Positions 1,415 through 58,713 of a stretch of 64,000 nt of DNA are shown piece after piece. Every line of letters begins with the position of its first letter. The stretch's first letter is position 1. The stretch comes from Naegleria gruberi. Its lineage: Eukaryota. The position numbers and the translations under genes were made by a program. The notes beneath the pieces are model-generated. The model had not been told where the DNA came from, did not search any database, and worked only from the letters and a program-made list of their open reading frames with translations. The DNA is taken from assembly GCA_000004985.1 (NCBI GenBank), contig GG738899.1, one strand, 5' to 3'.

Positions 1415-4400
1415 TTACATGGTTGAAGTACTAGTAGCAGGCTTCAATCCTTCACCAACATATCTAATGGCATGCTTATTTTGTGAAATGGCAATACGAA
1501 CAGTCTCCTTATTGATAAATCTTTCAGCAAGTCTTCTCAATACAAGTCCATTTGTAGAGACAGCAACCTTTACCATATCTTCACTGATACGGTTGGCATG
1601 TCTGATGAGGAATGGATTCTTCTTGATAATAGGGGTCATGAATTCAATGTCAGATCTGAGGAATCTTGAAGCATAACGAATGGAATTCACACATTGATTA
1701 GTGGCAACGGCAACGAGTTCCTTATCAAAGGTATATTCATTTGGAAGATAGTCCAACAATCTACCATTCTTCTTGAGAGCTAATTCGCACAATTCTCGGT
1801 TAATCTTGTTAGATTTCAAGAATTGAATGCAATTTCCATATCTCTTGACAGACTCTCTAACAAATTCATCATCATTTCTCAAAGATTCGTCCAAAAATTC
1901 GAATGATTTACCATTACTTGTCTTGAGTGAAATCTTGGCAATTTCCAAATCCTTCTTCAATTCTGATGGAGCAAACTTGACAGCCAATCCACAATTTTTT
2001 ACAGCATCCAAAACAATTTGCTTGGTGTTTTGCAAATCAGCAGAGGCAAACTTTAAGGCACGACCATTTACTGAAACTGCCTTTTGAACAATTTCGTAAT
2101 CACTTCTGAATGGAATTGCCAAATATTCCAAGGCAAGACCATTAATGGCAATTGCTAATAGTGCAAATTCTCTGTCTTGTTTGAGGGTTTCACTGGCATG
2201 TTTGAGGGATTTTCTATTCTTCTTGAAACAATCGAGGACAAACTTGGAATCACTCTTCAAATCATCAGAGGCGAGTTTGAGGATAGTAGCTCTGTGATTG
2301 ATTGCTTCCTTGATGTGAGAGGTGTCGAAGGATTGGTCAACCTTTTTTGGATTCTTACGAGCAAGTGAGAGTTTGACATCTGAATCTTGTTGTAATTCCT
2401 TAGAAAGATAAACGAATGATTTTCCACTTTGATTGAGAGCTACCAAAGCAACTTGTTTGTTATTTCTCATATCTTCAGATGCAAATCTAATGGCAGATCC
2501 ATTTTGCTTGACAGCTGCCAAAACAACACTCAAATTATTCTTCAAATCATTGGAAGCATAATCCAACAACAAACCATCCTTCTTGACAACTTTCAAGGTA
2601 ACTTGTTCATTGTTTTGCATTTCCTTAGAAATGAATTTGTAAGCGTCCTTACTGCTCTCAATAGCTCTCTCAACAATTTCCAAATCTTCCTTAAGATGTT
2701 CATTGAGATATTTGATAGAGTCTCCATTATTGGCAACTGCCTTCAATGCAAATTCTCTTTCATTTCTCAAATCGAGAGGTAAATATTGAAGAATTTCAAC
2801 ACCCTTATGATTCAAAGCAGCGTTAGCAATTTCCTTATCAATAATAGTACTACAGGCATATCTGATAGCAGTAGAGTCACATTCAACAGCATATTTTGTG
2901 AATTCCTTATCTTCCCACAAATCAATTGAGACATATTTCAAACTGTCATAGCTTTCCTTGACAGCAACTCTGGCATATTCCTTGTAATCCTTGGAATTTT
3001 CGTCCAAATATTTGAGTGAAGCTCCTTCATAGTACAAGGAAGCAAGAACAACATCTCTGTCACTTAACAAACTCTCGTGAACGTATCTGATGGCGCTTCT
3101 GTCAGTTTTCATAGCTGCCAATGCAATTTCCTTATCCTTGAGAATTTCCTCATCAAATACATATTGTAAACTGGAGCCATATTCTTGAATAGCTGTCATG
3201 ACAATTTCTCTATCTTTCTTAATATTTTCTGGAAGATATTCCAAAAGACATCCTTCAATTCTTACTAATTTCAGTAAAGCTTGTTTGTCATGTCTCAATG
3301 GATGATCAGGAAGTTTGGCCAAAACCAAAGGTTGCTTTACAAGAGCTTCACTAATAAATTCAGGATCATTTCTGAATTTTTCTGGAACATACTTGATATT
3401 ATCTCTATTTTCAATCACAGCTCTGAGGCAGAGTTCTCTATCATTCATAATATCATCGTGACTGATAAAGTATTCTAAACCACATGAAGGCAAGGCAATC
3501 TTGACAAGTTTTGGATCATTTCTCAATTCGAAAGGAATATAATTAATGGAATACTTGCTGGACTGAATGGCAGTCATGTAAACATCTCTTTGTAAGGCAA
3601 GATGAAGTGGTGCATACTTGATTAAATCTCCACTCTTTCTAATGGCAGTCATGAGAATTTCCTTATCATTCAATAATTCAACTGGAAGATATTCGTAGAC
3701 GTTTGGTTCCTTTTCAATAATTCTCATAACAAATTCTCTATCTCTTTGGAGTTCAGCACTGGCATATCTGAATGCTGTATAATAATTCTCCACAGCTGTT
3801 GTGACAATATATCGATCATTGGTGAATTTGGAACCAGCAAAGAGAAGTGCACCTCCACTGCATCTCACAGCTTCCAATACAATTTCATAATCTTCTCTCA
3901 ATTCAAGAGCAGCAAATGCAAGAGCATCACCATTTTCTTGAACTGCAATTTTGACAATTTCTCTGTCAGCTTTGAGTTCTTCACTGGCATATTCTAAACA
4001 TCTTCCATCAAGATATACTGCAAACTTTACAAAATCTCTATTAGAAAGAAATTCTGGATCAACAATGGCATCAATAGATCTTTCCTTGACAGCTGTCATT
4101 ACAACTTGAAGATTGCTTGCAAATTCCTTGCAGGCATGTTCAAAAACGTAACTGCTGTCTCTAACACAAATCTTGACAAGCTCTGCATCTGAAAGATGAG
4201 TTTCATCATCAATATATCTCAAAATAGATCCATCCATTTTCAATGCCTTCTTAACAATTTCTCTATCAGATTGCAACTCTGATGGGAAGTAACGAATGTA
4301 ACTGCACTTTAAGGCATTCATGTAAATCTCAGCGTCATTCTTGAAATGTTCACACTCCTGTAAGACACTTCCATTGTTCTTGATGAGTCTCTTGATGAAA

Positions 4401-6745
4401 TCTCTGTCACTCAATAATTCCTCTGAGAGAATCTTTGGTTCAACGGCAATTCCATGATCGAGTAATTTGGTCATGAATTCTCTGTCTTCTCCTAATTTTG
4501 TATCAATATCGTTGAATCCATACTGATTGGTAAGGAGTGAGAGTAGAGCAATTTCTCTATCTCCCTTAAACTTTGGCAAATCTTCAATGTTTCCACCATT
4601 AAATTGACAAACTGTTTTGGCAAATTCTCTGTCGCTTCTGAGTCTTTCAGAAGCAAATTTGAGAGAATTATAATTGCCCTTACCTGACCAGAGAACAATC
4701 TTTTCATCATCTTTTTGTTGCTTGGTAACATATTCAAGAACTCTTCCATCATTTTCCAATGCAACCATTACAAGAGAAATGTCTTTTTTCAATTCATCAC
4801 TGGCATGAGCAAATGCTCTACCATCCATTCTAATTGCAGTTGAGACAATTTCTCTATCATTCTTGAGTTCTTTAGAGGTATACTCCAAAGCATCTCCTGA
4901 TTTCATTACTGCTCTCAACACGACCCCTCTGTCATTCTTGAGGTCACTCGAAGCATACTCCAATGCTGAGCCATTTTCAGAGACTGCCATCAGGACAATT
5001 TCCTTATCGTTTTTGAGCTCAGCAGAGGCAAATTCAAGTTCTCTACCGTTATTCTTGACCAATTCCATAACAATCTCTCTGTCATTCTTCATTTCATCAT
5101 TCAAATATTCCAGGATAGAGCCCCATCTTGAGAAGCTAGATTTGAGTTTGATTATTTGCAAACATAAATCTCTATCATTCTTGATATTATCTGAAACATA
5201 TTGTAAAGCATTAGTGTTCGAAGAGAGGGCAAGCTTTACAATTTCAAAATCATCTTTCAATTCATCAGAAGCATAAGCAAGAGCTGAACCATCTTGTCTG
5301 ACAGCTTGTTTGACAATCTCTCTGTCAGATTTAACTTCTTCTGGGGCAAATTCCAAAGCAGAACCACGAACCTTGATAGCAGCCTTAACAATTTCAATAT
5401 TTTCTTTGATTTCATCAGAGGCATACTCTAAAACTGAGCCATTCTTTCTGAGTGCCTTCTTGACAATTTCAATATTATTCTTGATATCATCTGAGAGATA
5501 GCTGAGAGCTCTTGGATCTTCTTCGAGGGCAATTAATGCAATTTCCTCATCATTCTTCAAATTATCTGAAGCATATTCAACAATACGACCATTCTTTCTA
5601 ACAGCCATTTTGACAATTTCTCTATCATCTTTCAAGGAATCATCAACGTATTCCAATACATCTGCATTAATCTTGATAGCTTGTTTCACAAACTCTCTAT
5701 CTTGTTTCAATTCATCAGAAACATATCCACATGCTCTGGCATTACTAGAAATGGCAGCAAGGGCAATTTCCTGATCAGATTTAAACTCATCCACAACATA
5801 TTCCATCACATATCCATCTGATTTGACAGCTTTCAACACCAAATCTCTATCACTTTGCAATTCTTCTGGTATTTCCCTTAAATCACTTCCATTTACCAGT
5901 AAAACAGCTTCAACCACTTCACGATCCTGTTTCAATTCATCAGATAAATCGCTCACTAATGAACCGAAAAAGAATGAACATCCTTCTTCCTTTACACCTT
6001 TCAAAACCTTCAAACAAAGATCCTTTTCAGTTCTGAACTTTGGATGAGCATGTGAAAAAACAGTTCCATTATATGACTTGGCAATTGCACTAATCACAAT
6101 ATCAATGTCAGCTTTCAATTCTTCTGGACAAAATTCAAGTGCAGAGCCACTCTTATCCAAAGCTATGAGTGCCAATTCTTTATCTTCTCTCAATTCTTCT
6201 GATGCAAATTGGAAAGCATCTCCATCATTCTGAACTGCAATTTTCACAATTTCATAATCAGCTTTCAATTCATCAGATAAATATTCCAAATTAGAACCAG
6301 CATCTTCAAGAACAATTAGTGCAATTTCTCTGTCGTTTTTCAATTCGTCTGATGCATATTTGATGGATGATTTATCTTCTTTAATGGCCAATAGAACTAA
6401 TTCTTTATCATTTCGTAAAGAATCGGATGCATTTTCTAATAAATTGCCTCGTTTAGGGAGAGCTTTCAAAAACACTAGTTTACAATCATTGTCTGGGAAT
6501 GGATTTTCTGTTAAAAAATCGTCAACGGCAAAGTAATCATCATCAATTCGTCCAAAAGCTTCGAATAATTGTTCCAAATGTTCGAAAGCTTGTTTCTGAC
6601 GATTAACAACTTGATTACGTAAATAGATTCGATGATTTAACAGAATGGAATATGCAGAATTATTGTTGCCATCACATGAATGATCATAGCTTGATCCTCC
6701 ATTAGCGTTCAATGTGACAATTCTAGCATCTTCAAAGTTTGACAT
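1415..6745 (-). CDS. Giant tandem-repeat protein (1776 aa) built from about 40 copies of a roughly 35-36-aa repeat; the repeat resembles the Pfam DUF4116 repeat (my recollection, unverified).
   Basis: Single uninterrupted ORF, ATG at 6743-6745, TAA stop. The repeat appears as variations of SDELKNDREIVLKAVKQNGSALEYASEELKND almost end to end, with a non-repeat N-terminus of about 170 aa. The small ORFs on the opposite strand are antisense artefacts of the repeats. Confidence 0.8.
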   Translation of the reverse strand: MSNFEDARIVTLNANGGSSYDHSCDGNNNSAYSILLNHRIYLRNQVVNRQKQAFEHLEQLFEAFGRIDDDYFAVDDFLTENPFPDNDCKLVFLKALPKRGNLLENASDSLRNDKELVLLAIKEDKSSIKYASDELKNDREIALIVLEDAGSNLEYLSDELKADYEIVKIAVQNDGDAFQFASEELREDKELALIALDKSGSALEFCPEELKADIDIVISAIAKSYNGTVFSHAHPKFRTEKDLCLKVLKGVKEEGCSFFFGSLVSDLSDELKQDREVVEAVLLVNGSDLREIPEELQSDRDLVLKAVKSDGYVMEYVVDEFKSDQEIALAAISSNARACGYVSDELKQDREFVKQAIKINADVLEYVDDSLKDDREIVKMAVRKNGRIVEYASDNLKNDEEIALIALEEDPRALSYLSDDIKNNIEIVKKALRKNGSVLEYASDEIKENIEIVKAAIKVRGSALEFAPEEVKSDREIVKQAVRQDGSALAYASDELKDDFEIVKLALSSNTNALQYVSDNIKNDRDLCLQIIKLKSSFSRWGSILEYLNDEMKNDREIVMELVKNNGRELEFASAELKNDKEIVLMAVSENGSALEYASSDLKNDRGVVLRAVMKSGDALEYTSKELKNDREIVSTAIRMDGRAFAHASDELKKDISLVMVALENDGRVLEYVTKQQKDDEKIVLWSGKGNYNSLKFASERLRSDREFAKTVCQFNGGNIEDLPKFKGDREIALLSLLTNQYGFNDIDTKLGEDREFMTKLLDHGIAVEPKILSEELLSDRDFIKRLIKNNGSVLQECEHFKNDAEIYMNALKCSYIRYFPSELQSDREIVKKALKMDGSILRYIDDETHLSDAELVKICVRDSSYVFEHACKEFASNLQVVMTAVKERSIDAIVDPEFLSNRDFVKFAVYLDGRCLEYASEELKADREIVKIAVQENGDALAFAALELREDYEIVLEAVRCSGGALLFAGSKFTNDRYIVTTAVENYYTAFRYASAELQRDREFVMRIIEKEPNVYEYLPVELLNDKEILMTAIRKSGDLIKYAPLHLALQRDVYMTAIQSSKYSINYIPFELRNDPKLVKIALPSCGLEYFISHDDIMNDRELCLRAVIENRDNIKYVPEKFRNDPEFISEALVKQPLVLAKLPDHPLRHDKQALLKLVRIEGCLLEYLPENIKKDREIVMTAIQEYGSSLQYVFDEEILKDKEIALAAMKTDRSAIRYVHESLLSDRDVVLASLYYEGASLKYLDENSKDYKEYARVAVKESYDSLKYVSIDLWEDKEFTKYAVECDSTAIRYACSTIIDKEIANAALNHKGVEILQYLPLDLRNEREFALKAVANNGDSIKYLNEHLKEDLEIVERAIESSKDAYKFISKEMQNNEQVTLKVVKKDGLLLDYASNDLKNNLSVVLAAVKQNGSAIRFASEDMRNNKQVALVALNQSGKSFVYLSKELQQDSDVKLSLARKNPKKVDQSFDTSHIKEAINHRATILKLASDDLKSDSKFVLDCFKKNRKSLKHASETLKQDREFALLAIAINGLALEYLAIPFRSDYEIVQKAVSVNGRALKFASADLQNTKQIVLDAVKNCGLAVKFAPSELKKDLEIAKISLKTSNGKSFEFLDESLRNDDEFVRESVKRYGNCIQFLKSNKINRELCELALKKNGRLLDYLPNEYTFDKELVAVATNQCVNSIRYASRFLRSDIEFMTPIIKKNPFLIRHANRISEDMVKVAVSTNGLVLRRLAERFINKETVRIAISQNKHAIRYVGEGLKPATSTSTM

Positions 6746-10657: not shown

Positions 10658-12591
10658 TTGGAAAGTAGAAAAAAATACGAAACCGTTAAATTAAAACCAA
10701 GTGAAACTCGCTTGATCACAATGCCTAGTATTCCCAAGTTGAGTCTTGGTCATCAAAGACAAGCTTCTGTTGACACAACCCATTCTAACAATTCTTCAGA
10801 CGAAACAACTTCTAATTCTTCTTCAACTCTTAGCAATAATTTTCTGAGTGGAACTATTTCATCCGACAATTTAATTTCACAATTCATTGAACCGTTGAGT
10901 AATGCAAGAAAATCTAACGCCAAAATTCATTGGAAGTGTGTCCATGTGATTTCACATCCTGATTTTGAAAGAAAGTAAGTGTGATGATCAAATTTAAAAT
11001 ATTAACTTTAACAAGTGCTTTAGATGATGATTCCTCCTATCATACTACCTTACAGCTTATTCCATTCAGCAGTATGGATGTTGCCACACAAAAATCTAGA
11101 TTTGCCATTATTCACTCCAGTAAGAAGGGTGTTTCAGTGTTGGAATTAATTAATGAACTTACTCAATCAACAGATAATAAGATTGGAAATCAATGGATTG
11201 TAAAGTATCACACAAAATTAGAGTCCAATGGTTTCGGATCAAGTGCAGTATTAACAAAACAAACTACAGAAAAGAAGGAAAAGATTGTTTTCTTTGGTGG
11301 TTACTTCCATGAAAATCAAGAGAGTAATGACAAGTCTTCCTTGTTCCAATCTCAACAAAGATACTCTCTTGAATCCATTAGTCACAATAGAACCCTAACC
11401 AGTAGAATGAAAAAGCTATTCAAATCCTCGAAAGGAGATGTATCTGCTTGTCCTCACCCATCTAACATGTTTTTCAAATACAGATTTGATAAGTATGAGT
11501 TTGGTTTTTCGAAATCTGGGGAAGAAAATTCAGGATCTGAAAAAACACTATCCAGAAAGCCATCATTCATGACTGGTACAACCAATTACTGGCCTGCAAC
11601 TCATGCTAACCACAAAATTTTGAGTGTTGGAAAAGAAATTTATGTATTTGGAGGACATTACATGAAGTGGAATGAACTTACTGAAGATAATCAAAACGAT
11701 GCAGAGAAGAGGACATCTTTTGTCTATATTTTCGATACAAAGAGAAAGAAGTTTGAACAGCCAAAGTTAGTAAGCTTTACACTTCCAAAACCTCAATCAT
11801 CAGTTAGTACTACTGTCAGCACTGATTCACTTGATAGTGCTTCAACACCAACAGCAGAAACACATAAGGATATTCAACTTCCAATTGAAAATGAAGTTGA
11901 TTCAAAGCAAAAGGAAAGAAGAAATTTCTTACTTGATAGTATTAAATCTTTCAGTAGAGAAAGAAAGAACTCATTCCATGATGGAGATAAAATGATGACA
12001 GACCTTCGTGATATTGCTCCAATGAATAGATTTGGTCACAATGTTGTAAATGTAAACGGTGTAGCATATATTTATGGTGGTAAATTAAGAAAGCAATACA
12101 ATAGTGGTAATCCAGACCAAGTCAATCCTCATTCAGATGATTCTGTTTACAGCTTTAATTTCAGAACTGGTCAATTCTCTAGGTTAAGAATTAAAAGCCA
12201 TGACAAGCCACATCCTAGAATGTTCCATGCCATGGTTGAAATTCCAGAAAACAATTGTTTCCTTATGATGGGTGGTCAAAATGTAACAGAGCAAGTTCTT
12301 GAAGATGAAACACTAAGTATGATGATGGAAGAAGTTAAAATGAAAAAGGGGACTGAAACAGAGGCAACAAACTTCTTGGATGATTGTTATGTTTTCGATA
12401 TTCTGAGATCAGAATGGTCAAAAGTCAAACAAAGTGGTCACTTGCCACTCAATGCATCAAACTTTGGATTTGAACATGAAGCAACTAGAGTACCTGTTGC
12501 CCTAGCTAGAACTAAGGAAGGAGATTTCTTGTGTGTTGTAAAGAATGGTCTTGGATCATTGGAAGTCTATTTAGGACAATCTAATTTTTAA
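10658..12591 (+). CDS. Kelch-repeat (beta-propeller) protein; proposed two-exon model join(10658..10974,11016..12591).
   Basis: The downstream ORF has repeated Kelch-like motifs: VFFGGYFHEN, IYVFGGHYMKW, AYIYGGKLRK, CFLMMGGQNV. A perfect GTAAGT donor sits at 10975 and an AG acceptor at 11014-11015; the resulting 41-nt intron joins the two track ORFs in frame (ER-N-ALDDDSSY). The true start within exon 1 is uncertain. Confidence 0.5.
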
Positions 12592-12731: not shown

Positions 12732-15700
12732 TTACATTAAATTGGATTGTTTCAATAATTCTTCTCTGCTGTTACTGGAAGTGGAATATTCTTCAAACTC
12801 TTGTGTATAGAAAAATCTAGAGAAAGTATCTGATAGATTGATTAATATTTGATCTGTAAGGGATTTGATATTATCAACAACCATATCAGATAAATTTGCA
12901 GGAAGGGAGTTCTTTTTTGTTTTGGAAACTGATTGCTTCTCGTCTACTAATTCGAGATTATTTGCATTTTTCAACTTTGCCACCATTGAGGCAAAAGATT
13001 TTCTGCAATCAGATGGAATATTCACTTCCCTAATAGAACCAGATTTCACATAATCATCATAAATATTGTTAATAAACTCTATTATTTCTGCCAGTCCCTT
13101 TTCGATAATATTGGAGTTTTTGGTTAAATGTAAATAGAGTTGAAGATTTTCAAGTGAAAACTCTTTTCTGCAGAAACTATCAAATATCTTTAGGAATATT
13201 GGATTTTCTAGGTATTGATTGATTTCTACCTTCTCTTGTTCATTCTTTTCACCATTCCACACTTTCATTCTTTGGGCTAACAATACAAGAAGGGAATAAC
13301 CTCCATACACTAGCATGTATGTAACAATATGTAATACCTCGAAAATGATTGAAACCGAGTCATAGGTCACTACAGTTCTTACTATAGCCAATGGTGCTAA
13401 TTTTGTTTCGGTATAACCTGTTAGTAACAGCCTATAGTTAAGACTAGCCATTCCCAAAGCTTGTACAATGACAAGGAAAATAAATGAAATAACAAACAAA
13501 ATCATTTCAGCTCTGAAGAACAGTGGAGAATCAGCCTCTACAAACCAAGAAAAGAGGAAATTGAAAACCTTACCCAAAATATTTTGAGCTTTCATCTTTT
13601 GAGATTCTTTAGATCTGTTGGTTGTTTCATTCTTGTTCAAATTTCTCTGATACCATGTCATTATCAAATCTACTGAAAATATACAACAAACAGCAAAACC
13701 AATAAATAGAATTGCAACAGTATAAGAAATGGAAACTATTTGGGTGTATTCAGGGCCAGTAATCACGTTTGTTCTAACTAAAATAACCCACAAAGTCCAA
13801 TATGCTAAATTGATAAATGCAAAAGTAATCAACATAATGCTGTAGAATTTTGCAGATATCAGATGCTTGATAAAGTGAAGAAATCTACTTGCAGTCACCT
13901 TATCGTTCATTAAGGATAATTCATTATAGAAATATTTTAAAAATTCAAATCTCATAACCTGATACAAGTATGTCATGATTGCACACAGGGTTATGGTGTT
14001 TACAATAATTGTAATAATATTTGCCAATATAGAGGAAGCTAGATAACTATTGGCATCGTTTGATTGGGTAGAGGAAATCAAAACACTTCGTTGAACAATG
14101 AGTAGAAGAGAGCTTTGGGTAATCAAAGCTGCCATTCCCAAGAAAGGGGTTGTGAATCTGCTCTTTACAGGTTGTTTGTTAGCATTCAAAGCTAATCCTA
14201 TCAAGACTGCAACAGCACAAATCAAGTAAACTGAACCTAGGGCAATCTGAGTACCATGAACACCAATAAATTGATCGACATATGGTTCAAATGTAATACC
14301 CACAGGAACTTGCTCTATAAAAGCAGAAAATAAAGTGGTATGAGTACAAGAGCAAACAATTTCACCAGTTGCCGAGTTTAAGGATTTCAAAGTGCAACCG
14401 TCAGTATCCCATTTGGACATGGTTTCATTCCAATATTTACAAATGATTCTACTATTATTGCTAGAGCTAATGGGGGTGTTTGAATTGAATGAAATTGAAA
14501 AAGGTTTCACAAGGCTCTTCAAATTCATGCTGTTGCCGTTCCTATGCATTGTGAAATCCTTAGCATTGGCAGCGAAGGTGGCATTAGTCTCTGGATACAC
14601 TATTCCATTAAAGGATACTACAGATAAACCAACTTCAGTGGAGAAGGAGGAGTATTGTGCAAGAATGGAATCAGCTTCAAATAAAATTGAGTCAAACCGA
14701 TTTGTTACCGTTGAAGTTGAAGCACTGTCTTTCGAAAAACTTGAGTATGTAATATTAATATTGGCTGAAGTTATAATTGTTGAAGGCAAGAGTGTATCAC
14801 TTGAAGTAAGGAGGGTTGGTATTGAGGAAATTACTAAAAGTGAAGACAATTTGGTCGCTAAACGACTATCCAATCCCTTTTGAACTAAATTGGATGATGT
14901 TGAAAGAATCGTTTTCGTATCTTCATCTGAGATCTTGGAAGACACAAATCCCTGTTGGCTCTTTTGAGTTTTGTAAGAATTTACAGAATTTCCAAGGTAA
15001 GAATCCAGGTTTTGTATAATTAAATTGGACACAGAGGTAGTGAGATTTTTTTCAGACATAGAATACAGTGATCCAAGTCCAACTGTTGGATTTTCCGCTG
15101 AAATAGTGAAATTCTGCATAGCCATTAACAGTAATTGGTCATATTCATCCGATGATCCAGTGAATGATGAGTCATATGGAACCACTTTAGCAATTCTTGA
15201 ATCGGTCTTCATTAGAGACATTGCCTCACTTGGGGTGCTGTAGAATCTAAGCATTGTCACAACTGATTGAACTAAAACTGACTGTACATTAGATAAGTTA
15301 TCCTTTGCAAAGACCACCAAGTCTGTTGGCTTGTTTTGTTCCATATTTTTTGTGAAAGGCAAATAAGTCAGTAATTGTTGGCCCATAGGTACAAATTCAG
15401 TTAATCGTAGAGTCTGGTTGTTGTAAACAATACCTATTGCAAAAGAAAGCGGGGATTGATCTGCAGAGAAAATTTTCCAGTCGCTTTCGTTTTCCTGAAT
15501 ACTAAACAAGGTATACAGACCAACTCCTCTGTTAGGAGATATATTTAGATTTGAATTTGATGACTTTCTAATTATTGAGCTGGCTACAGGAATGGTGTGA
15601 TTAATCACCATAGTGTTTTGGATAGCACCAGTAATTGTAAAGGAAAGGGTAGCAAAATTAGTAGAACCTTCAAGTTTTACCAATCCTTTGACATTAACAA

Positions 15701-17564
15701 AGGGGTTGAGACTAATACTGGTGAAATTAGAGTTTTTGTTTGCTGTTCCTCTTGTAGTAATTTGATCAGAGCTTGAATATATTCTTTCCTCATACACAAG
15801 CTTCCATGAAATAGAGATGATAGTTGAACAGCTATTACATTCGTTTTGGTTAATTAATGCCAAAAATCTTTTTGTGTCAATGTTGAATCCTGTCAGGACA
15901 CTGTCAATCATTTGATTTTGTGATAGGGATATAGCTTTGATTATATCAGTAACATTGGAGGTGCTATCAAAACTTGAATTATTTGCATAAGTTGAATTGA
16001 ATGTGCTATTATCTACCCCAATTGGTGGTATTACAGTAACTGTAAAATTAACAGAATTAGAGGTTCTAATTATTGCTCCTTCTTGTATATGATTCACCCT
16101 AACAGTTACAATGAAGGTTCCAAGGCTTGAAGCATTAAATAACAATGAACTGAAATTATTATCAATTGGCATTGCACATTTTTCGCAATTCCATATAAAA
16201 TTAATCCCATTAGTAATAGTTTCTGAAACATTAATCTGTAGAACTTGAGATTTTCCTATCTCAACATCATAATTTGAATTAATTGCATTGATAAGAAAAG
16301 ATGAATTGAATTGGCATTGATTTCCCACGAATCCTACTCTACAACTGCATGTATCAGTTTTTGCGCAGTTGCCTCTTCCACTGCAAACAGATGAGTCGTT
16401 TGATAATTTTCCATAACAATAACTTATCAGACATTGTGGATCTGAGCTATTTGTATCACAATTCATTAAATTGAGTCTTCCTATCTGTAGGGTATTCGTA
16501 TCTGTGAAATAGAGAGTTCCGTTTGAATGGACATATAATCCAACAGGTTTGCTAACAGAGATTCCATATTTAGATTCTGCCAATATCGTTCTTATTGTAT
16601 TCTTCTCTATATTAAATACTTTGATTTTTCCTGAATCAGTATCAGCAATATATAGCATTTTACCATCTGGACTCAAAGCTATCCCTTGAGGATTATTCAA
16701 GTTGTGACTAAGAGGATCCAAAGCATCATTTTCAGAAGTGAAAGGGTTTTCTCCTGACCCCACAACAGTTTCCAATAATTTGCTAGAAACGTTATATCTC
16801 TTGATCAAGTTTGTTTCACTATCACAAATGTAGAGGATATCACTTGAAGACATTGCCAGAGAAGTTGGTTTTTGTAGGCCTCCTTGTTGTATCCCTAAAT
16901 CAATCTCAATCTCATTTACAAATCCATCCGTGCCAACTCTAAATATCTTGTCATTGCTGGTAACATAAAGAATTGAGGAATAGAGAGCCAATCCCTTTGG
17001 TTCAATAAGATTAATATGCGCCTTATCATAAGGTGGCGCATATTCAGCCGACCTGTTTCCACTTCCAACATAGTTTTGCAATATCCCTGATGATAGTACT
17101 AGTTTTTTGATGAAATCATTATTAGTGTCAGTAAATAGTACAGTATCCGAATCCATAAAAACAACAGAAGATGGTGAATTTAGAGGAGAAGTAGGACCAA
17201 AAGCAGAACCACCAAGGTCAATAGTAGCATTACCTGAATAACCTGCTCCAGCCAAAACATATGCTGGTGCACCATTATCTGAGAAAAACAACAATCTATG
17301 ACTTCCACTATCAACAACAATAATTGTGTTAGCATCCTTAACTAAAACCGAAGTTGGAGACTTTAAAAGTGAAGTATCCACTGGAAACAAATCCGCCGAT
17401 GTTACAACAGTAGTATCAATAATTGTTGTATTGACATCGATAAGTTCTGGAGGAAGAGGAATTGGTGTTGGTGAGGGTCCAGGAGCCGGCGCAAAATCAG
17501 CAACGATAACTGATGTCAGAACAAGCACAAGAACCAAAAGAAATAGAGGTGTGTATCTTGACAT
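12732..17564 (-). CDS. Adhesion-GPCR-like receptor with a C-terminal RGS domain (1610 aa). Domain order: signal peptide, NHL-repeat beta-propeller, EGF-like module, long Ser/Thr/Asn-rich stalk, GPS/GAIN-like motif, seven TM helices, RGS box.
   Basis: Signal peptide MSRYTPLFLLVLVLVLTSVIVA. NHL-like blades (e.g. LNNPQGIALSPDGKMLYIADTDSGKIKVFN). EGF module CSGRGNCAKTDTCSCRVGFVGNQCQ. GPS-like motif CKYWNETMSKWDTDGCTLKSLNSATGEIVCSCTHTTLFSAF sits immediately before the first of seven hydrophobic helices. C-terminal RGS-like motif FLKIFDSFCRKEFSLENLQLYLHL. Single ORF, ATG at 17562-17564, TAA stop. Confidence 0.8.
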   Translation of the reverse strand: MSRYTPLFLLVLVLVLTSVIVADFAPAPGPSPTPIPLPPELIDVNTTIIDTTVVTSADLFPVDTSLLKSPTSVLVKDANTIIVVDSGSHRLLFFSDNGAPAYVLAGAGYSGNATIDLGGSAFGPTSPLNSPSSVVFMDSDTVLFTDTNNDFIKKLVLSSGILQNYVGSGNRSAEYAPPYDKAHINLIEPKGLALYSSILYVTSNDKIFRVGTDGFVNEIEIDLGIQQGGLQKPTSLAMSSSDILYICDSETNLIKRYNVSSKLLETVVGSGENPFTSENDALDPLSHNLNNPQGIALSPDGKMLYIADTDSGKIKVFNIEKNTIRTILAESKYGISVSKPVGLYVHSNGTLYFTDTNTLQIGRLNLMNCDTNSSDPQCLISYCYGKLSNDSSVCSGRGNCAKTDTCSCRVGFVGNQCQFNSSFLINAINSNYDVEIGKSQVLQINVSETITNGINFIWNCEKCAMPIDNNFSSLLFNASSLGTFIVTVRVNHIQEGAIIRTSNSVNFTVTVIPPIGVDNSTFNSTYANNSSFDSTSNVTDIIKAISLSQNQMIDSVLTGFNIDTKRFLALINQNECNSCSTIISISWKLVYEERIYSSSDQITTRGTANKNSNFTSISLNPFVNVKGLVKLEGSTNFATLSFTITGAIQNTMVINHTIPVASSIIRKSSNSNLNISPNRGVGLYTLFSIQENESDWKIFSADQSPLSFAIGIVYNNQTLRLTEFVPMGQQLLTYLPFTKNMEQNKPTDLVVFAKDNLSNVQSVLVQSVVTMLRFYSTPSEAMSLMKTDSRIAKVVPYDSSFTGSSDEYDQLLLMAMQNFTISAENPTVGLGSLYSMSEKNLTTSVSNLIIQNLDSYLGNSVNSYKTQKSQQGFVSSKISDEDTKTILSTSSNLVQKGLDSRLATKLSSLLVISSIPTLLTSSDTLLPSTIITSANINITYSSFSKDSASTSTVTNRFDSILFEADSILAQYSSFSTEVGLSVVSFNGIVYPETNATFAANAKDFTMHRNGNSMNLKSLVKPFSISFNSNTPISSSNNSRIICKYWNETMSKWDTDGCTLKSLNSATGEIVCSCTHTTLFSAFIEQVPVGITFEPYVDQFIGVHGTQIALGSVYLICAVAVLIGLALNANKQPVKSRFTTPFLGMAALITQSSLLLIVQRSVLISSTQSNDANSYLASSILANIITIIVNTITLCAIMTYLYQVMRFEFLKYFYNELSLMNDKVTASRFLHFIKHLISAKFYSIMLITFAFINLAYWTLWVILVRTNVITGPEYTQIVSISYTVAILFIGFAVCCIFSVDLIMTWYQRNLNKNETTNRSKESQKMKAQNILGKVFNFLFSWFVEADSPLFFRAEMILFVISFIFLVIVQALGMASLNYRLLLTGYTETKLAPLAIVRTVVTYDSVSIIFEVLHIVTYMLVYGGYSLLVLLAQRMKVWNGEKNEQEKVEINQYLENPIFLKIFDSFCRKEFSLENLQLYLHLTKNSNIIEKGLAEIIEFINNIYDDYVKSGSIREVNIPSDCRKSFASMVAKLKNANNLELVDEKQSVSKTKKNSLPANLSDMVVDNIKSLTDQILINLSDTFSRFFYTQEFEEYSTSSNSREELLKQSNLM

Positions 17565-29900: not shown

Positions 29901-30450
29901 TGCTTTGCACTTATCAACCAAGATCTATTTGGAACTTTCTTTGCATTAATAGGTACAAAGTGAAAGTCGCCTTAAAAAACTGACTAATAACATCATAAAA
30001 TTAGATTTAGAACAGACAATTACTGAAATTGTAAAACATTGAAAGTTTAATGATTGTTTGTAGGGTTGTATGCAACATTTCTTCTCCAGTATGAACGTTT
30101 CCTCTCAACCAAATATTTGGAGAATGAAACACAATGACCTTGTTTTACATGATGTTCAAAATCATTGTCACTAATTACTTCATAAACATTTTCTTTACAA
30201 ACAGCACAAAACGAAACTCCGTACGAAACCTCAATAAATTGTCTAAGGGAAATGAAAGAGTTCTTCACTATCTTGGCCAACAGATTGAAAAAACTCCCAA
30301 ACTTTAATTGAAACTTCCATTTCAGAGTTGGCTCTATTTTTAAAGAAAGAATTATACCATAATGAAATGAATGTTTTCAACAATCTGAAGCTAAGAGAGA
30401 TTGCAAACCAATACTGATTTTGAGGCATGTGTAATTCTAACATCACTATC

Positions 30451-30480
30451 AGCTCGTATTCTACCACTAAACCATCGACG
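30451..30480 (-). pseudogene. tRNA 5'-half remnant (acceptor plus D-arm only)
   Basis: The reverse complement reads GCGTCGATGGTTTAGTGGTAGAATACGAGC, a canonical tRNA 5' end with a GGTTTAGTGGTAGAAT D-arm. No anticodon stem or T-arm follows. Confidence 0.3.
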
Positions 30481-30738
30481 CTTCTTATTAGTCTATCAAA
30501 TATTATAATAATAGATAGTGTGATTTAATAAACTGTCATCAATGAAGTGTTGGTGGCGAAACTCCACCCATGCCTTTTTTACCTCCTGTTAAAATTACAT
30601 TAAGAATTTGAATGGAACATCATAAGTTTTATCTGGTTCAAAACCATCAATTTTCGAATGGTGTTTTAGTACTCACTCACAAATTAAACTATAACAAATT
30701 AAGAGATAGCTCATTATCTTAATTTTGATATTAACAAT

Positions 30739-30857
30739 GGCTACGGCCATATCACGATGAATGCACCTCATCCCGTCCGATTTGAGAAGGTAAGCATCGT
30801 CGAGCCACATCAGTACTGAGGTTGGAGACAACTTGGGAACCTGTGGTGCTGTAGTCT
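30739..30857 (+). rRNA. 5S ribosomal RNA gene (119 nt), second intact copy
   Basis: Identical to the copy at 28456-28574 except for one substitution (AAGGTAAGC versus AAGTTAAGC). Followed by TTTTT at 30858-30862. Confidence 0.85.
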
Positions 30858-30892
30858 TTTTAATTCAAAATATCAAAGTAAAATGAAATTTT

Positions 30893-31836
30893 TTATTTTA
30901 AATATAAATTGGATGTATTAAATAAACATTTACAATTTAATTCTAATTTATCAAATTTATATTGTTCAAGTACAGTGGTATCAAATTGTAATTCTTGTAA
31001 AATCAAACATTCAACAGTTAATTCATTTAAATTTAAAGGAATATTTAATTTTTTTAAATCATATTCAATAATTGTTAATTTTTTTAAATTACATAAATTA
31101 TTTAAATTAACTATTGTAGTTCCTAATTCTTCTAAATGTAATATTTCTAAATTAATCATATTATTTATAATATTAATTTCAGTTAAATAACATCCAGTTA
31201 AAGATAATTCAGTTAAATTTAATTTTGAAATTGCATTTAAAAAATTAAAATAATTTAATTGTTCTAATTCTGATTTAAATATTAAACTTTTTAAATTATT
31301 TAAATGAATAATACCTTCACCATTTAATTCTGTATCTGTAAATGATAATTTTGTTAATTTGGTTAAATATTTTAAATTAATTTCATTTTCAATTTCATTA
31401 CAATATAATTCTTTTAAATTATTTAATTTAGATAATAGAATAATATCCAATTCATTTAAATTAATTGATAAATGTAAAATTGATAAATTATTTAAATTAT
31501 TTAAATATGGTAATACTAAAATGTTTAAATAATAGAAGAAACCCTTAACATACCTTTTATATCACCTTTTAATTCATATATAGAATTAATGTAATTATTA
31601 TTTTCACAAAATTTAATAAAACTATTAATGTATTTAAATCTGCTATTATATTTGATATTAATAATTGATTTGTAATTTAATTTATTACAAATAATAACAT
31701 TCCATTCTTTTGATATTATTCTTAAATATTTACAACAATATTCAAAGGTAAAATATTTAAATAAATGTTCTATCAATATTTCCGATGGAATGTTCGGTGA
31801 GGAGGAATAATTAATCATATGAACTGAGGATGACAT
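30893..31836 (-). CDS. F-box / leucine-rich-repeat protein (about 301 aa), two exons join(complement 31554..31836, 30893..31515).
   Basis: N-terminal F-box-like IPSEILIEHLFKYFTFEYCCKYLRIISKEWNVII. The C-terminal part is made of LxxLxL leucine-rich repeats. A GTATGT donor and TTTTAG acceptor define a 38-nt intron; the exon lengths sum to 906 nt, which is in frame. The upstream extension of the second track ORF has no stops. Confidence 0.6.
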
Positions 31837-32073
31837 TTTTTTTAATAATGAAAAACAATTGATTGGAAATTCACATCAATTCCAGAATTACAGAAAAACC
31901 AGAAACATTTCGAACAAAAACCGAACACATGATGATTGTGGAATTACTTTATATGATTTCCCTCCCTTCTTCCTGTTAGATTGTTTAATTGTGTAGTGGA
32001 TAATCCAAAAAGTATCCAATGTGAAACAACACTATTCAGAATAGTTTTGATCAAAATTAATGTTTTATTTTAA

Positions 32074-33512: not shown

Positions 33513-33584
33513 TCCCGTGTAGTCCAATGGCTAGGATACCTGGCTTTCACCCAGGAGGTCCGGGTTCAATTCCCGGCATGGGAG
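33513..33584 (+). tRNA. tRNA-Glu (anticodon UUC), copy 1
   Basis: TCCCGTG-TA-GTCCAATGGCTAGGATAC-CTGGC TTTCACC CAGGA (anticodon loop CTTTCAC, anticodon TTC) -GGTCC-GGGTTCAATTCCCGG-CATGGGA-G. All stems pair. Followed by AATTTT. Confidence 0.85.
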
Positions 33585-42435: not shown

Positions 42436-42508
42436 GCCCCGCTAGCTCAGTCGGTAGAGCGTTGGACTTTAAATCCAACGGTCGTGGGTTCGAGCCCCAC
42501 GTGGGGCG
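42436..42508 (+). tRNA. tRNA with anticodon UUA on a tRNA-Lys-like body; it would decode the UAA stop codon (ochre-suppressor-like).
   Basis: GCCCCGC-TA-GCTCAGTCGGTAGAGC-G-TTGGA CTTTAAA TCCAA-CGGTC-GTGGGTTCGAGCCCCAC-GTGGGGC-G. The anticodon stem is 5 bp and perfect, which fixes the loop as C-U-U-U-A-A-A: U33, anticodon 34-36 = UUA (42469-42471), A37. The D- and T-arms match the tRNA-Asn here and eukaryotic tRNA-Lys(UUU). One T to A change at position 36 relative to Lys-UUU would produce this anticodon. A TTTTTTT run follows. Confidence 0.7.
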
Positions 42509-58641: not shown

Positions 58642-58713
58642 TCCCGTGTAGTCCAATGGCTAGGATACCTGGCTTTCACCCAGGAGGTCCGGGTTCAATT
58701 ACCGGCATGGGAG
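58642..58713 (+). tRNA. tRNA-Glu (anticodon UUC), copy 2, with a T-stem mismatch.
   Basis: Identical to copy 1 except a C to A change (CAATTACCGG versus CAATTCCCGG) that creates a G-A mismatch in the T-stem. About 45 bp of upstream flank (TGTATTGTTGCTATAAAGAAGTT.TTTTCAT.ATGAA.AACATCCCG) and the downstream GGATAATTTTAA are also conserved with copy 1. Confidence 0.75.

Follow-up and report, generated by a model that had tools for sequence, protein, structure and literature searches.

Can an autoproteolytic GAIN domain be joined to a seven-transmembrane (7TM) bundle outside Holozoa, and what kind of GPCR (G-protein-coupled receptor) would result when the same polypeptide ends in an RGS box? Both questions are raised by one gene (hereafter the receptor) in a stretch of Naegleria gruberi DNA of 64,000 nucleotides from contig GG738899.1 of assembly GCA_000004985.1 (hereafter the window). 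A preliminary description of the window had proposed that a single open reading frame (ORF) at 12732-17564 on the minus strand fuses an NHL propeller, an EGF module, a GPS/GAIN-like motif, seven transmembrane helices, and an RGS box, and ORF, Pfam, and hydropathy analyses agreed on this layout. A structure model and family profiles further showed a genuine, complete GAIN domain directly before the first transmembrane helix (TM1), as in adhesion GPCRs, the profile matches being independent of the structure.

The ORF product was identical (100%, full length) to a ‘predicted protein’ of N. gruberi in NCBI/UniProt (P0001), and the public gene model likewise consists of this one exon. The probability that a stop-free frame of this length (4.8 kb) arises by chance at a composition of ~33% GC was ~1e-53. 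That the ORF is one gene was also borne out by the recurrence of the same fusion in >80 relatives from four species. The receptor locus is thus one real gene in the nuclear DNA of this heterolobosean amoeboflagellate.

GAIN domain, predicted cleavage site and Stachel-like strand

The gene and the core features of its product were located as follows:

12732..17564, minus: receptor gene, one exon with an ORF of 1,610 codons that runs from ATG to the stop codon without an internal stop
14820..15194, minus: GAIN subdomain A, helical, residues ~791-915 (AlphaFold helices and profile matches)
14307..14819, minus: GAIN subdomain B, beta-sandwich including the GPS, residues ~916-1086
14316..14441, minus: GPS motif, residues 1042-1083 (Pfam GPS, residue-level alignment, and family conservation)
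14334..14342, minus: predicted autoproteolytic triad H1075-T1076-T1077, with the putative scissile bond between T1076 and T1077 (match to H-X-S/T)
14262..14336, minus: Stachel-like segment and linker to TM1, residues 1077-1101, TLFSAFIEQVPVG... (alignment to ADGRD1; putative agonist)
13272..14261, minus: 7TM domain, residues 1102-1431, N-terminus outside and C-terminus inside, GPCR fold
12765..13229, minus: RGS box, residues ~1446-1600, with an insert of ~45 residues (Pfam, phmmer, family profile, and Foldseek)

The GPS motif quoted in the preliminary description was present exactly and reads C1042-K-Y1044-W...W1052...G1056-C1057...C1071-S-C1073-T-H1075-T1076-T1077-L-F-S-A-F-I, with the spacing C1042-x2-W-x6-W-x4-C1057-x13-C1071-x-C1073-x-H-T-T-L-F-S-A-F. 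The Pfam GPS family matched residues 1041-1080 (E = 2e-8; 35.1 bits against a cut-off of 22.5). For the surrounding fold, two AlphaFold models were considered: model 1, built from a 6-sequence alignment, had a predicted local distance difference test score (pLDDT) of 62.6 and a poor subdomain B that made it unfit for the GAIN question, and model 2, built from 27 family sequences, reached a mean pLDDT of 82.4 and was used for the GAIN fold. Model 2 displayed seven helices at residues 781-913 (pLDDT 72-92) and ~13 strands at residues 917-1085, followed by a helical bundle. A Foldseek search with this model placed the motif within a GAIN domain directly before TM1, the best match being the CD97 holoreceptor (E = 8.6e-9), followed by BAI2, BAI3, CELSR1, latrophilin-1, and latrophilin-3. 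The family profile searched against the PDB gave the same placement, with matches to ADGRL3 (1e-11), ADGRG6 (1.1e-11), ADGRF1 (4e-9), and a latrophilin-1 GAIN crystal chain (2.7e-6). On the receptor these profile matches extended from residues ~824-877 to residue 1127, a span that includes the whole of subdomain B and a large part of subdomain A, together with the cleavage site and TM1. A single-sequence phmmer search of the GAIN region against the PDB was marginal (E 0.02-0.03), and significance was reached with the family profile.

The position of the predicted cut was supported by several alignments. Cleaved GAIN crystal chains stop at profile position 563, which corresponds to H1075, so that the H1075-T1076/T1077 site falls on the known scissile site between Leu and Thr of H-L-T. 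Residue-level alignments to ADGRG3 and ADGRD1 agreed on this site, and in model 2 the T-H-T-T letters formed the turn between the last two strands (residues 1068-1073 and 1078-1085). BAI2 is a receptor in which an intact motif is nevertheless uncleaved, and cleavage of the N. gruberi receptor therefore stays a prediction. According to a structural study from 2026, efficient GAIN cleavage requires an H-X-S/T triad, an aromatic residue at S10.49 stacking on the His, and a Gly-Cys pair; the S10.49 aromatic is Phe, or Tyr in ADGRE3, and an L821Y substitution works too (PMC13062082). All three determinants were present in the receptor as H-T-T, Y1044 (S10.49, at the C-x-[F/Y]-W position), and G1056-C1057.

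Conservation was counted in a hidden Markov model alignment of 83 family GAIN regions. The catalytic His and the Gly were invariant (83/83 each), Thr at +1 was found in 82/83 regions, and the stacking position was Tyr in 70/83 and Phe in a further 10/83. The -1 residue was Thr in 80 of the 83 regions and Ala in the other 3. The cleavage motif drifts in receptors lacking efficient cleavage (PMC13062082), and the near-invariant catalytic columns of the family argue for a working site. Autoproteolysis would accordingly be expected between T1076 and T1077, judging from the sequence alignments.

Conservation continued beyond the cut, with Phe at +3 and at +6 in 81/83 regions each and Ile, Leu, Val, or Met at +7 in 77/83. 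The segment after the predicted cut aligned with the ADGRD1 tethered agonist TNFAILMQVVPL. The tethered-agonist core of animal receptors is T-x-F-A-V-L-M, compared with T-L-F-S-A-F-I in the receptor and a family consensus of T-x-F-[SAT]-x-F-[ILV], such that positions +1, +3, +6, and +7 are compatible with the agonist consensus. The same residues also form strand 13 of the GAIN domain and therefore an agonist role is not proven by their conservation alone.

Seven-helix bundle, RGS box and modular ectodomain

Hydropathy analysis identified seven hydrophobic segments within residues 1102-1431, and AlphaFold predicted seven long helices for the membrane domain. Lys and Arg residues were counted as 0, 0, 0, and 2 in the outer loops (sum 2) and 2, 5, 7, and 5 in the inner loops (sum 19), a bias that places the ectodomain outside the cell and the RGS box in the cytoplasm. 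Among the domains anticipated in the preliminary description, NHL, GPS, and RGS scored above their Pfam cut-offs, but EGF stayed below threshold and 7tm_2 was not matched. Neither 7tm_2 nor any other Pfam 7TM model matched the receptor or 24 relatives, and in the PDB the family profile matched no solved GPCR beyond the GAIN match with its extension into TM1, even with E-values up to 10 allowed. Extracellular loops 1 (ECL1; SSTQSNDAN) and 2 (ECL2; TNVITGPE) were 8-9 residues long and lacked Cys, so that no TM3-ECL2 disulfide could be formed. This conserved disulfide is a defining feature of adhesion GPCRs. Membership of the adhesion GPCRs (class B2) was consequently rejected, the 7TM domain not being of the 7tm_2 type. 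A preference of the modeled bundle for class C may just reflect a compact predicted bundle, and the GPCR class was left unassigned.

The cytoplasmic tail was matched by Pfam RGS (E = 1.2e-8; residues 1450-1535; 35.8 bits against a cut-off of 23.9). The RGS signature named in the preliminary description, FLKIFDSFCRKEFSLENLQLYL, was present and aligned to RGS5, RGS14, and RGS16, and phmmer against the PDB aligned residues ~1446-1550 to RGS5 (1.9e-4), RGS14, RGS16, and RGS1. The family profile strengthened the matches to RGS10 (1.8e-16) and RGS4 (1.8e-10). Foldseek with the C-terminal domain of model 1 identified RGS8 in complex with Gαi3 (TM-score 0.70), RGS4 (0.69), and RGS16, in a TM-score range of 0.65-0.70 with weak E-values because model 1 was poor overall. 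The Gα-contact motifs EFSLEN (1468-1473), EVN (1513-1515), and DTFSRF (1579-1584) were invariant columns in the family alignments, which upheld the RGS assignment at the level of the Ser/Glu/Asn, Asn, and Asp/Arg contacts. Of the RGS4 contacts in the RGS4-Gαi1 complex, S85/E87/N88 correspond to S1470/E1472/N1473, N128 to N1515, and D163/R167 to D1579/R1583, with S164 likewise within DTFSRF. On these alignments the tail is a genuine RGS box with its Gα-contact motifs intact. In N. fowleri, the RGS domains of the 7TM RGS2-4 proteins are selective GTPase-activating proteins (GAPs) for Gα subunits of that species, among them Gα5 and Gα7, which self-activate (PMC9283941), and by homology to these proteins the receptor would have GAP activity.

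Outside the membrane, a signal peptide was followed by the NHL propeller, the EGF module, ~150 residues lacking a match, a REJ-like region, and the GAIN domain. The parts upstream of the GAIN domain were:

17499..17564, minus: signal peptide, residues 1-22, MSRYTPLFLLVLVLVLTSVIVA (N-terminal hydropathy peak 2.76; cleavage position placed by eye)
16470..17387, minus: NHL beta-propeller of about six blades, residues ~60-365 (Pfam NHL, 5.2e-15)
16314..16418, minus: EGF-like module, residues 383-417, six Cys, ending CSCRVGFVGNQC (Cys spacing and family matches)
15195..16289, minus: stalk, residues 426-790, the first ~150 residues having no assignment and residues 578-781 being REJ-like (transitive homology)

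The NHL match was above the Pfam gathering score, and the SGL, Lactonase, and Arylesterase propeller families of six or seven blades overlapped the same region. Homologues of the propeller region in a full-length sequence search were NHL, TEN_NHL, and SGL proteins. Four blades were recognized by motif (residues 67, 128, 230, and 289) and two by eye (residues ~186 and ~337), suggesting a six-bladed propeller. The EGF module followed the canonical six-Cys pattern (C383..C417) and scored below the Pfam cut-off, with EGF_2 and EGF_Teneurin at E 0.01 (residues 391-418). A phmmer search with residues 376-425 matched EGF repeats in 43 family members, where they carry the Pfam labels EGF_2 and EGF_TEN.

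The preliminary description had named a stalk of ~500 residues rich in N-glycosylation sequons. Such a region was present, but it was not a plain linker, as residues 578-781 were REJ-like and residues ~781-1086 belonged to the GAIN domain. Residues 426-790 had no direct Pfam match, REJ included, and the whole stalk (residues 426-800), used as query in an iterative local search, recovered only the protein itself. The first ~150 residues of the stalk contained two W-x-C-x-x-C / C-x-x-C pairs. The REJ-like assignment was transitive only: residues 578-781 aligned to residues 112-316 of the relative P0062 (E 5.8e-14 with residues 560-800 as query), and this part of P0062 sits inside its own Pfam REJ match (residues 84-324; 28.4 bits against a cut-off of 25). 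REJ was also significant in P0049 (9.6e-9) and in one more relative. Sequons, earlier called extremely abundant, numbered 21 in residues 420-1040, not significantly more than the 15.9 +/- 3.3 of composition-preserving shuffles (P = 0.08), and their excess over the whole ectodomain had P = 0.03. The sequon richness was mostly an effect of a composition rich in Asn, Ser, and Thr.

A heterolobosean family and its relation to known receptors

Relatives were sought by an exhaustive profile search in which the GPS-7TM-RGS part of the receptor and three relatives was compared with 1.84 billion cluster representatives. A full-length word-indexed search had returned nearly only NHL propeller proteins and no family member, and queries with the C-terminal half found the family. 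Of the 968 matches at E <= 1e-3 in the profile search, 93 reached E <= 1e-30, and these were mostly proteins of 1,200-2,600 residues whose C-terminus matched the whole profile. The search identified 83 or more relatives that carry a GAIN domain and share this C-terminal layout, from N. gruberi, N. fowleri, N. lovaniensis, and Willaertia. All members with a species name were heterolobosean (the three Naegleria species and Willaertia magna), and the weaker, shorter matches were mostly metagenome proteins. The N. fowleri proteins P0051 (E 1.9e-214) and P0102 (E 4.4e-62) matched across the whole GPS-7TM-RGS span.

A Pfam census of 24 members identified RGS in 23, EGF in 18, GPS in 14, NHL in five, and an RCC1 propeller in four, together with one member each for REJ, malectin, and NCD3G. 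The NHL-bearing members included FDP41_008291 of N. fowleri and a Willaertia protein, and the NHL-EGF-GAIN-7TM-RGS layout is therefore recurrent. The RCC1-type propellers of four of the 24 relatives (E down to 8.5e-147) lay in the supposed extracellular part, RCC1 propellers outside the cell being unusual. One relative carried NCD3G, Ephrin_rec_like, and TNFR-like Cys-rich modules and another a malectin domain. Among the gene models, that of the N. gruberi paralogue P0047 (523 residues) ‘starts’ with MFSTFIEHNST, inside the conserved strand after the GPS cleavage site, and is almost certainly truncated, lacking its GAIN and ectodomain exons. The model of P0048 from N. lovaniensis starts later still, in TM3. 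Owing to such truncated models, annotation counts of GPS-bearing 7TM-RGS genes are too low.

The preliminary description had called the combination of domains unusual, which does not hold given the large heterolobosean family and the publication of GPS, EGF, 7TM, and RGS together for N. fowleri in 2022 (PMC9283941). That study described 28 7TM-RGS proteins in N. fowleri, ‘a number’ of them with a GPS and several with EGF repeats and lectin domains, ectodomains it called ‘reminiscent of the adhesion GPCRs’ (Bosch et al., J Biol Chem 2022, PMC9283941). Earlier, 229 RGS proteins were counted in N. gruberi and 7TM-RGS architectures were reported in many lineages (de Mendoza et al., 2014, PMC3971589). 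The receptor is, by its sequence, an uncharacterized N. gruberi member of the family already described in N. fowleri. The text of Bosch et al. does not contain the full GAIN fold, the H-T-T variant, the Stachel-like sequence, the NHL propeller, or the REJ-like stalk (PMC9283941), and a literature search for ‘Naegleria’ with ‘GAIN domain’ found no paper. New here are the full GAIN fold, the near-invariant catalytic and Stachel-like residues (H-T-T-x-F-x-x-F), and the NHL-bearing members. The GAIN/7TM module has been said to arise in stem holozoans and to be restricted to holozoan adhesion GPCRs (2025, PMC12716839), and the heterolobosean family contradicts this statement as worded. As the 7TM domain of the family is not of the adhesion type, its GAIN-7TM joint may be an independent fusion.

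The closest known proteins are the 7TM RGS proteins of N. fowleri, from the same genus, which have the C-terminal 7TM and RGS core in common with the receptor; the receptor is an N. gruberi paralogue of that family, known here from its sequence. Seven transmembrane segments and a C-terminal RGS box are likewise found in AtRGS1 and in the 7TM-RGS proteins of plants, Trichomonas, chytrids, filastereans, and ichthyosporeans. The N-terminus of AtRGS1 is short, and unlike the receptor AtRGS1 is not known to carry GAIN/GPS or adhesion modules. Proteins of the AtRGS1 type act as membrane GAPs on self-activating Gα and are tuned by extracellular cues (PMC9283941, PMC3971589).

The adhesion GPCRs (latrophilin/ADGRL3, ADGRG6, ADGRD1, and CD97) share with the receptor the GPS with four Cys and two Trp, the H-X-T triad, the stacking aromatic, the Gly-Cys pair, the Stachel-like T-x-F-x-x-Φ-Φ, and a large modular adhesion ectodomain. 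In contrast to them, the receptor lacks 7tm_2, HormR, and the TM3-ECL2 disulfide, has Thr rather than Leu at -1, carries a fused RGS box, and belongs to a host outside Holozoa. We know of no animal adhesion GPCR with a fused RGS box. The REJ-GAIN tandem of the receptor, its REJ part being transitive, is more reminiscent of polycystin-1 and sea-urchin REJ than of the HormR-GAIN of animal adhesion GPCRs. In polycystin-1, PKDREJ, and sea-urchin REJ a REJ region also precedes a GAIN/GPS just outside the membrane. Polycystin-1 has a PLAT domain, 11 transmembrane helices, and a C-terminal part resembling a channel. A polycystin-1-type protein was rejected for the receptor, which has only seven transmembrane segments, no Pfam PLAT match, and an RGS box.

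Two further systems resemble the receptor in function or in module types. The GPR158/mGlyR-RGS7-Gβ5 complex is a functional analogue in which a seven-transmembrane receptor has an RGS GAP as its output instead of nucleotide exchange. GPR158, a class C orphan receptor with a Cache-like ectodomain, serves as scaffold for an RGS protein that is a chain of its own, and the family profile searched against the PDB gave no sequence similarity between GPR158 and the receptor. Teneurins have only module types in common with the family, as reflected in the Pfam labels EGF_Teneurin, EGF_TEN, and TEN_NHL, and neither a YD shell nor any other teneurin feature was present in the receptor. Teneurins are type II proteins and latrophilin ligands, not GAIN-bearing receptors.

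The genes around the receptor in the window are ordinary eukaryotic genes for a Kelch propeller, an actin, and a DUF4116-repeat protein. The Kelch-repeat propeller gene (10981..12591, plus) converges with the receptor gene, and their stop codons are 140 bp apart, such that the 3' untranslated regions of the two genes must be very short or overlapping. An ORF of 1,776 residues at 1415..6745 (minus) consists nearly entirely of 36 DUF4116 repeats (Pfam 1257 bits). Genes for tRNA-Glu(UUC) at 33513..33584 (plus) and 58642..58713 (plus), as well as for tRNA-Asn and tRNA-Arg, are scattered among the protein-coding genes. A further well-formed tRNA gene at 42436..42508 (plus; Rfam tRNA 70.8 bits, E 1e-15) was labeled ‘tRNA-Stop’ by ARAGORN; its anticodon loop C-U-U-U-A-A-A gives the anticodon UUA, which would read the UAA stop codon. 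Our impression is that the body of this tRNA resembles the tRNA-Lys(UUU) type, and the gene may encode either a suppressor or a mutated copy of tRNA-Lys. The GC content dips to 0.245 at 30001..32000 compared with ~0.33 in the rest of the window.

Receptor-GAP or exchange factor

The receptor, a surface protein of type I orientation, is probably a receptor-GAP regulated by its ectodomain, AtRGS1-like and not a classical GPCR that acts as a guanine nucleotide exchange factor (GEF). In such a receptor, the NHL propeller and EGF module would be the likely ligand- or adhesion-binding parts, carried atop the REJ-like stalk and the GAIN domain. The GAIN domain is predicted to self-cleave at the T1076-T1077 bond, which would leave the N-terminal fragment non-covalently held via the last beta-strand (TLFSAFI...). 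This strand would be tethered ~25 residues from TM1 of a bundle with a GPCR fold, whose TM7 leads into the cytoplasmic RGS box. The RGS box would act as a GAP on Naegleria Gα subunits, several of them loading GTP spontaneously, and would keep Gα, self-activating subunits included, in the GDP state at the membrane. Binding to or pulling on the ectodomain would then shift the relationship between the GAIN domain, the Stachel-like strand, and the 7TM domain. This shift may alter the reach of the RGS box to Gα through conformation, clustering, or internalization and thereby set the level of Gα-GTP, the coupling of the ectodomain to the GAP output being inferred.

Several points weigh against the receptor-GAP. 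The 7TM domain is not demonstrably related to those of adhesion GPCRs, so that homology gives no grounds for a Stachel-binding pocket. At -1 the receptor has Thr where Leu is usual, though Thr is allowed by H-X-S/T. An insert of ~45 residues separates the last two RGS motifs, and Pfam aligns only residues 1450-1535. Cleavage and GAP activity are both predicted, as is any ligand. Among the targets of the N. fowleri 7TM-RGS domains are also Gα2 and Gα3, which exchange slowly (PMC9283941), and the 7TM domain may thus have a GEF role.

The rival that survives best, yet is unlikely, makes the receptor a self-terminating adhesion-type GPCR, in which an exposed Stachel turns the 7TM domain into a GEF for a slow-exchanging Gα and the fused RGS box quickly switches that same Gα off, giving brief and spatially confined pulses. 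It draws on the resemblance of the GAIN-Stachel-TM1 layout and the conserved T-x-F-x-x-F-[ILV] to tethered-agonist receptors, on the GPCR fold of the bundle, and on the activity of N. fowleri 7TM-RGS domains toward Gα2 and Gα3, two slow exchangers that would depend on a GEF (PMC9283941). However, the 7TM domain is not 7tm_2 and has no detectable sequence kinship to solved GPCRs beyond TM1, and its ECL2 of 8 residues with no Cys is unlike the Stachel-holding ECL2 of adhesion GPCRs. Moreover, GEF activity has not been demonstrated for any 7TM-RGS protein, and AtRGS1, the best studied of them, acts as a GAP (PMC9283941). The label ‘self-terminating’ given in the preliminary description presumes a GEF-type 7TM domain, and the GAP activity of N. 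fowleri relatives on self-activating Gα subunits fits an AtRGS1-type receptor-GAP at least as well.

A somewhat less probable rival is a force-releasable adhesin on a constitutive GAP anchor, where the main purpose of cleavage is to let the NHL/EGF ectodomain be shed under shear and the 7TM-RGS part is not regulated by the Stachel-like strand, as proposed for microbial MAIN domains and for the ‘trans’ mode of adhesion GPCRs. Bacterial and archaeal GAIN-like domains self-cleave and release surface proteins without 7TM signaling (bioRxiv 10.64898/2026.05.12.724683), and the highly varied family ectodomains (NHL, EGF, RCC1, malectin, and REJ) would fit adhesion or scavenging. On the other side, the GAIN domain always lies ~25 residues from TM1, and Phe at +3 and +6, the hydrophobic residue at +7, and the 7TM core are conserved as strongly as the catalytic residues; this conservation after the cleavage site is not decisive, because GAIN folding alone would conserve strand 13. 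An artefact of annotation or assembly in which adhesin and 7TM-RGS genes are read as one ORF, or a decayed family member, is effectively refuted despite clearly wrong family gene models such as P0047 (starting inside the GPS strand), given the 4.8-kb stop-free frame in 33% GC DNA (chance ~1e-53), the continuous GAIN-TM1 junction, the same layout in >80 relatives from four species, the intact catalytic and contact residues, and the truncated models, which speak for under-calling and not over-calling of such fusions.

The family may, tentatively, represent a catalytically intact GAIN domain and Stachel-like strand wired to a non-adhesion seven-helix bundle whose output is a fused GAP, in a large heterolobosean family. 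A single gene changes little alone, and the family-level picture across at least four heterolobosean species matters more. It provides a clear case of a GAIN domain joined to a 7TM domain outside Holozoa, one left out of current accounts of adhesion GPCR origins. If the Stachel truly acts on the bundle, tethered-agonist (mechano)sensing was not invented by holozoan adhesion GPCRs and would either predate Holozoa by far or have been put together once more on another 7TM scaffold. An ‘inverse’ G-protein signaling would then be possible, based on regulated GTP hydrolysis and not on regulated exchange. The family offers a tractable system for asking whether a tethered agonist regulates a receptor-GAP. 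It is also large in the pathogen N. fowleri, where its extracellular domains, predicted to be self-cleaving, are conceivable targets for drugs or antibodies.

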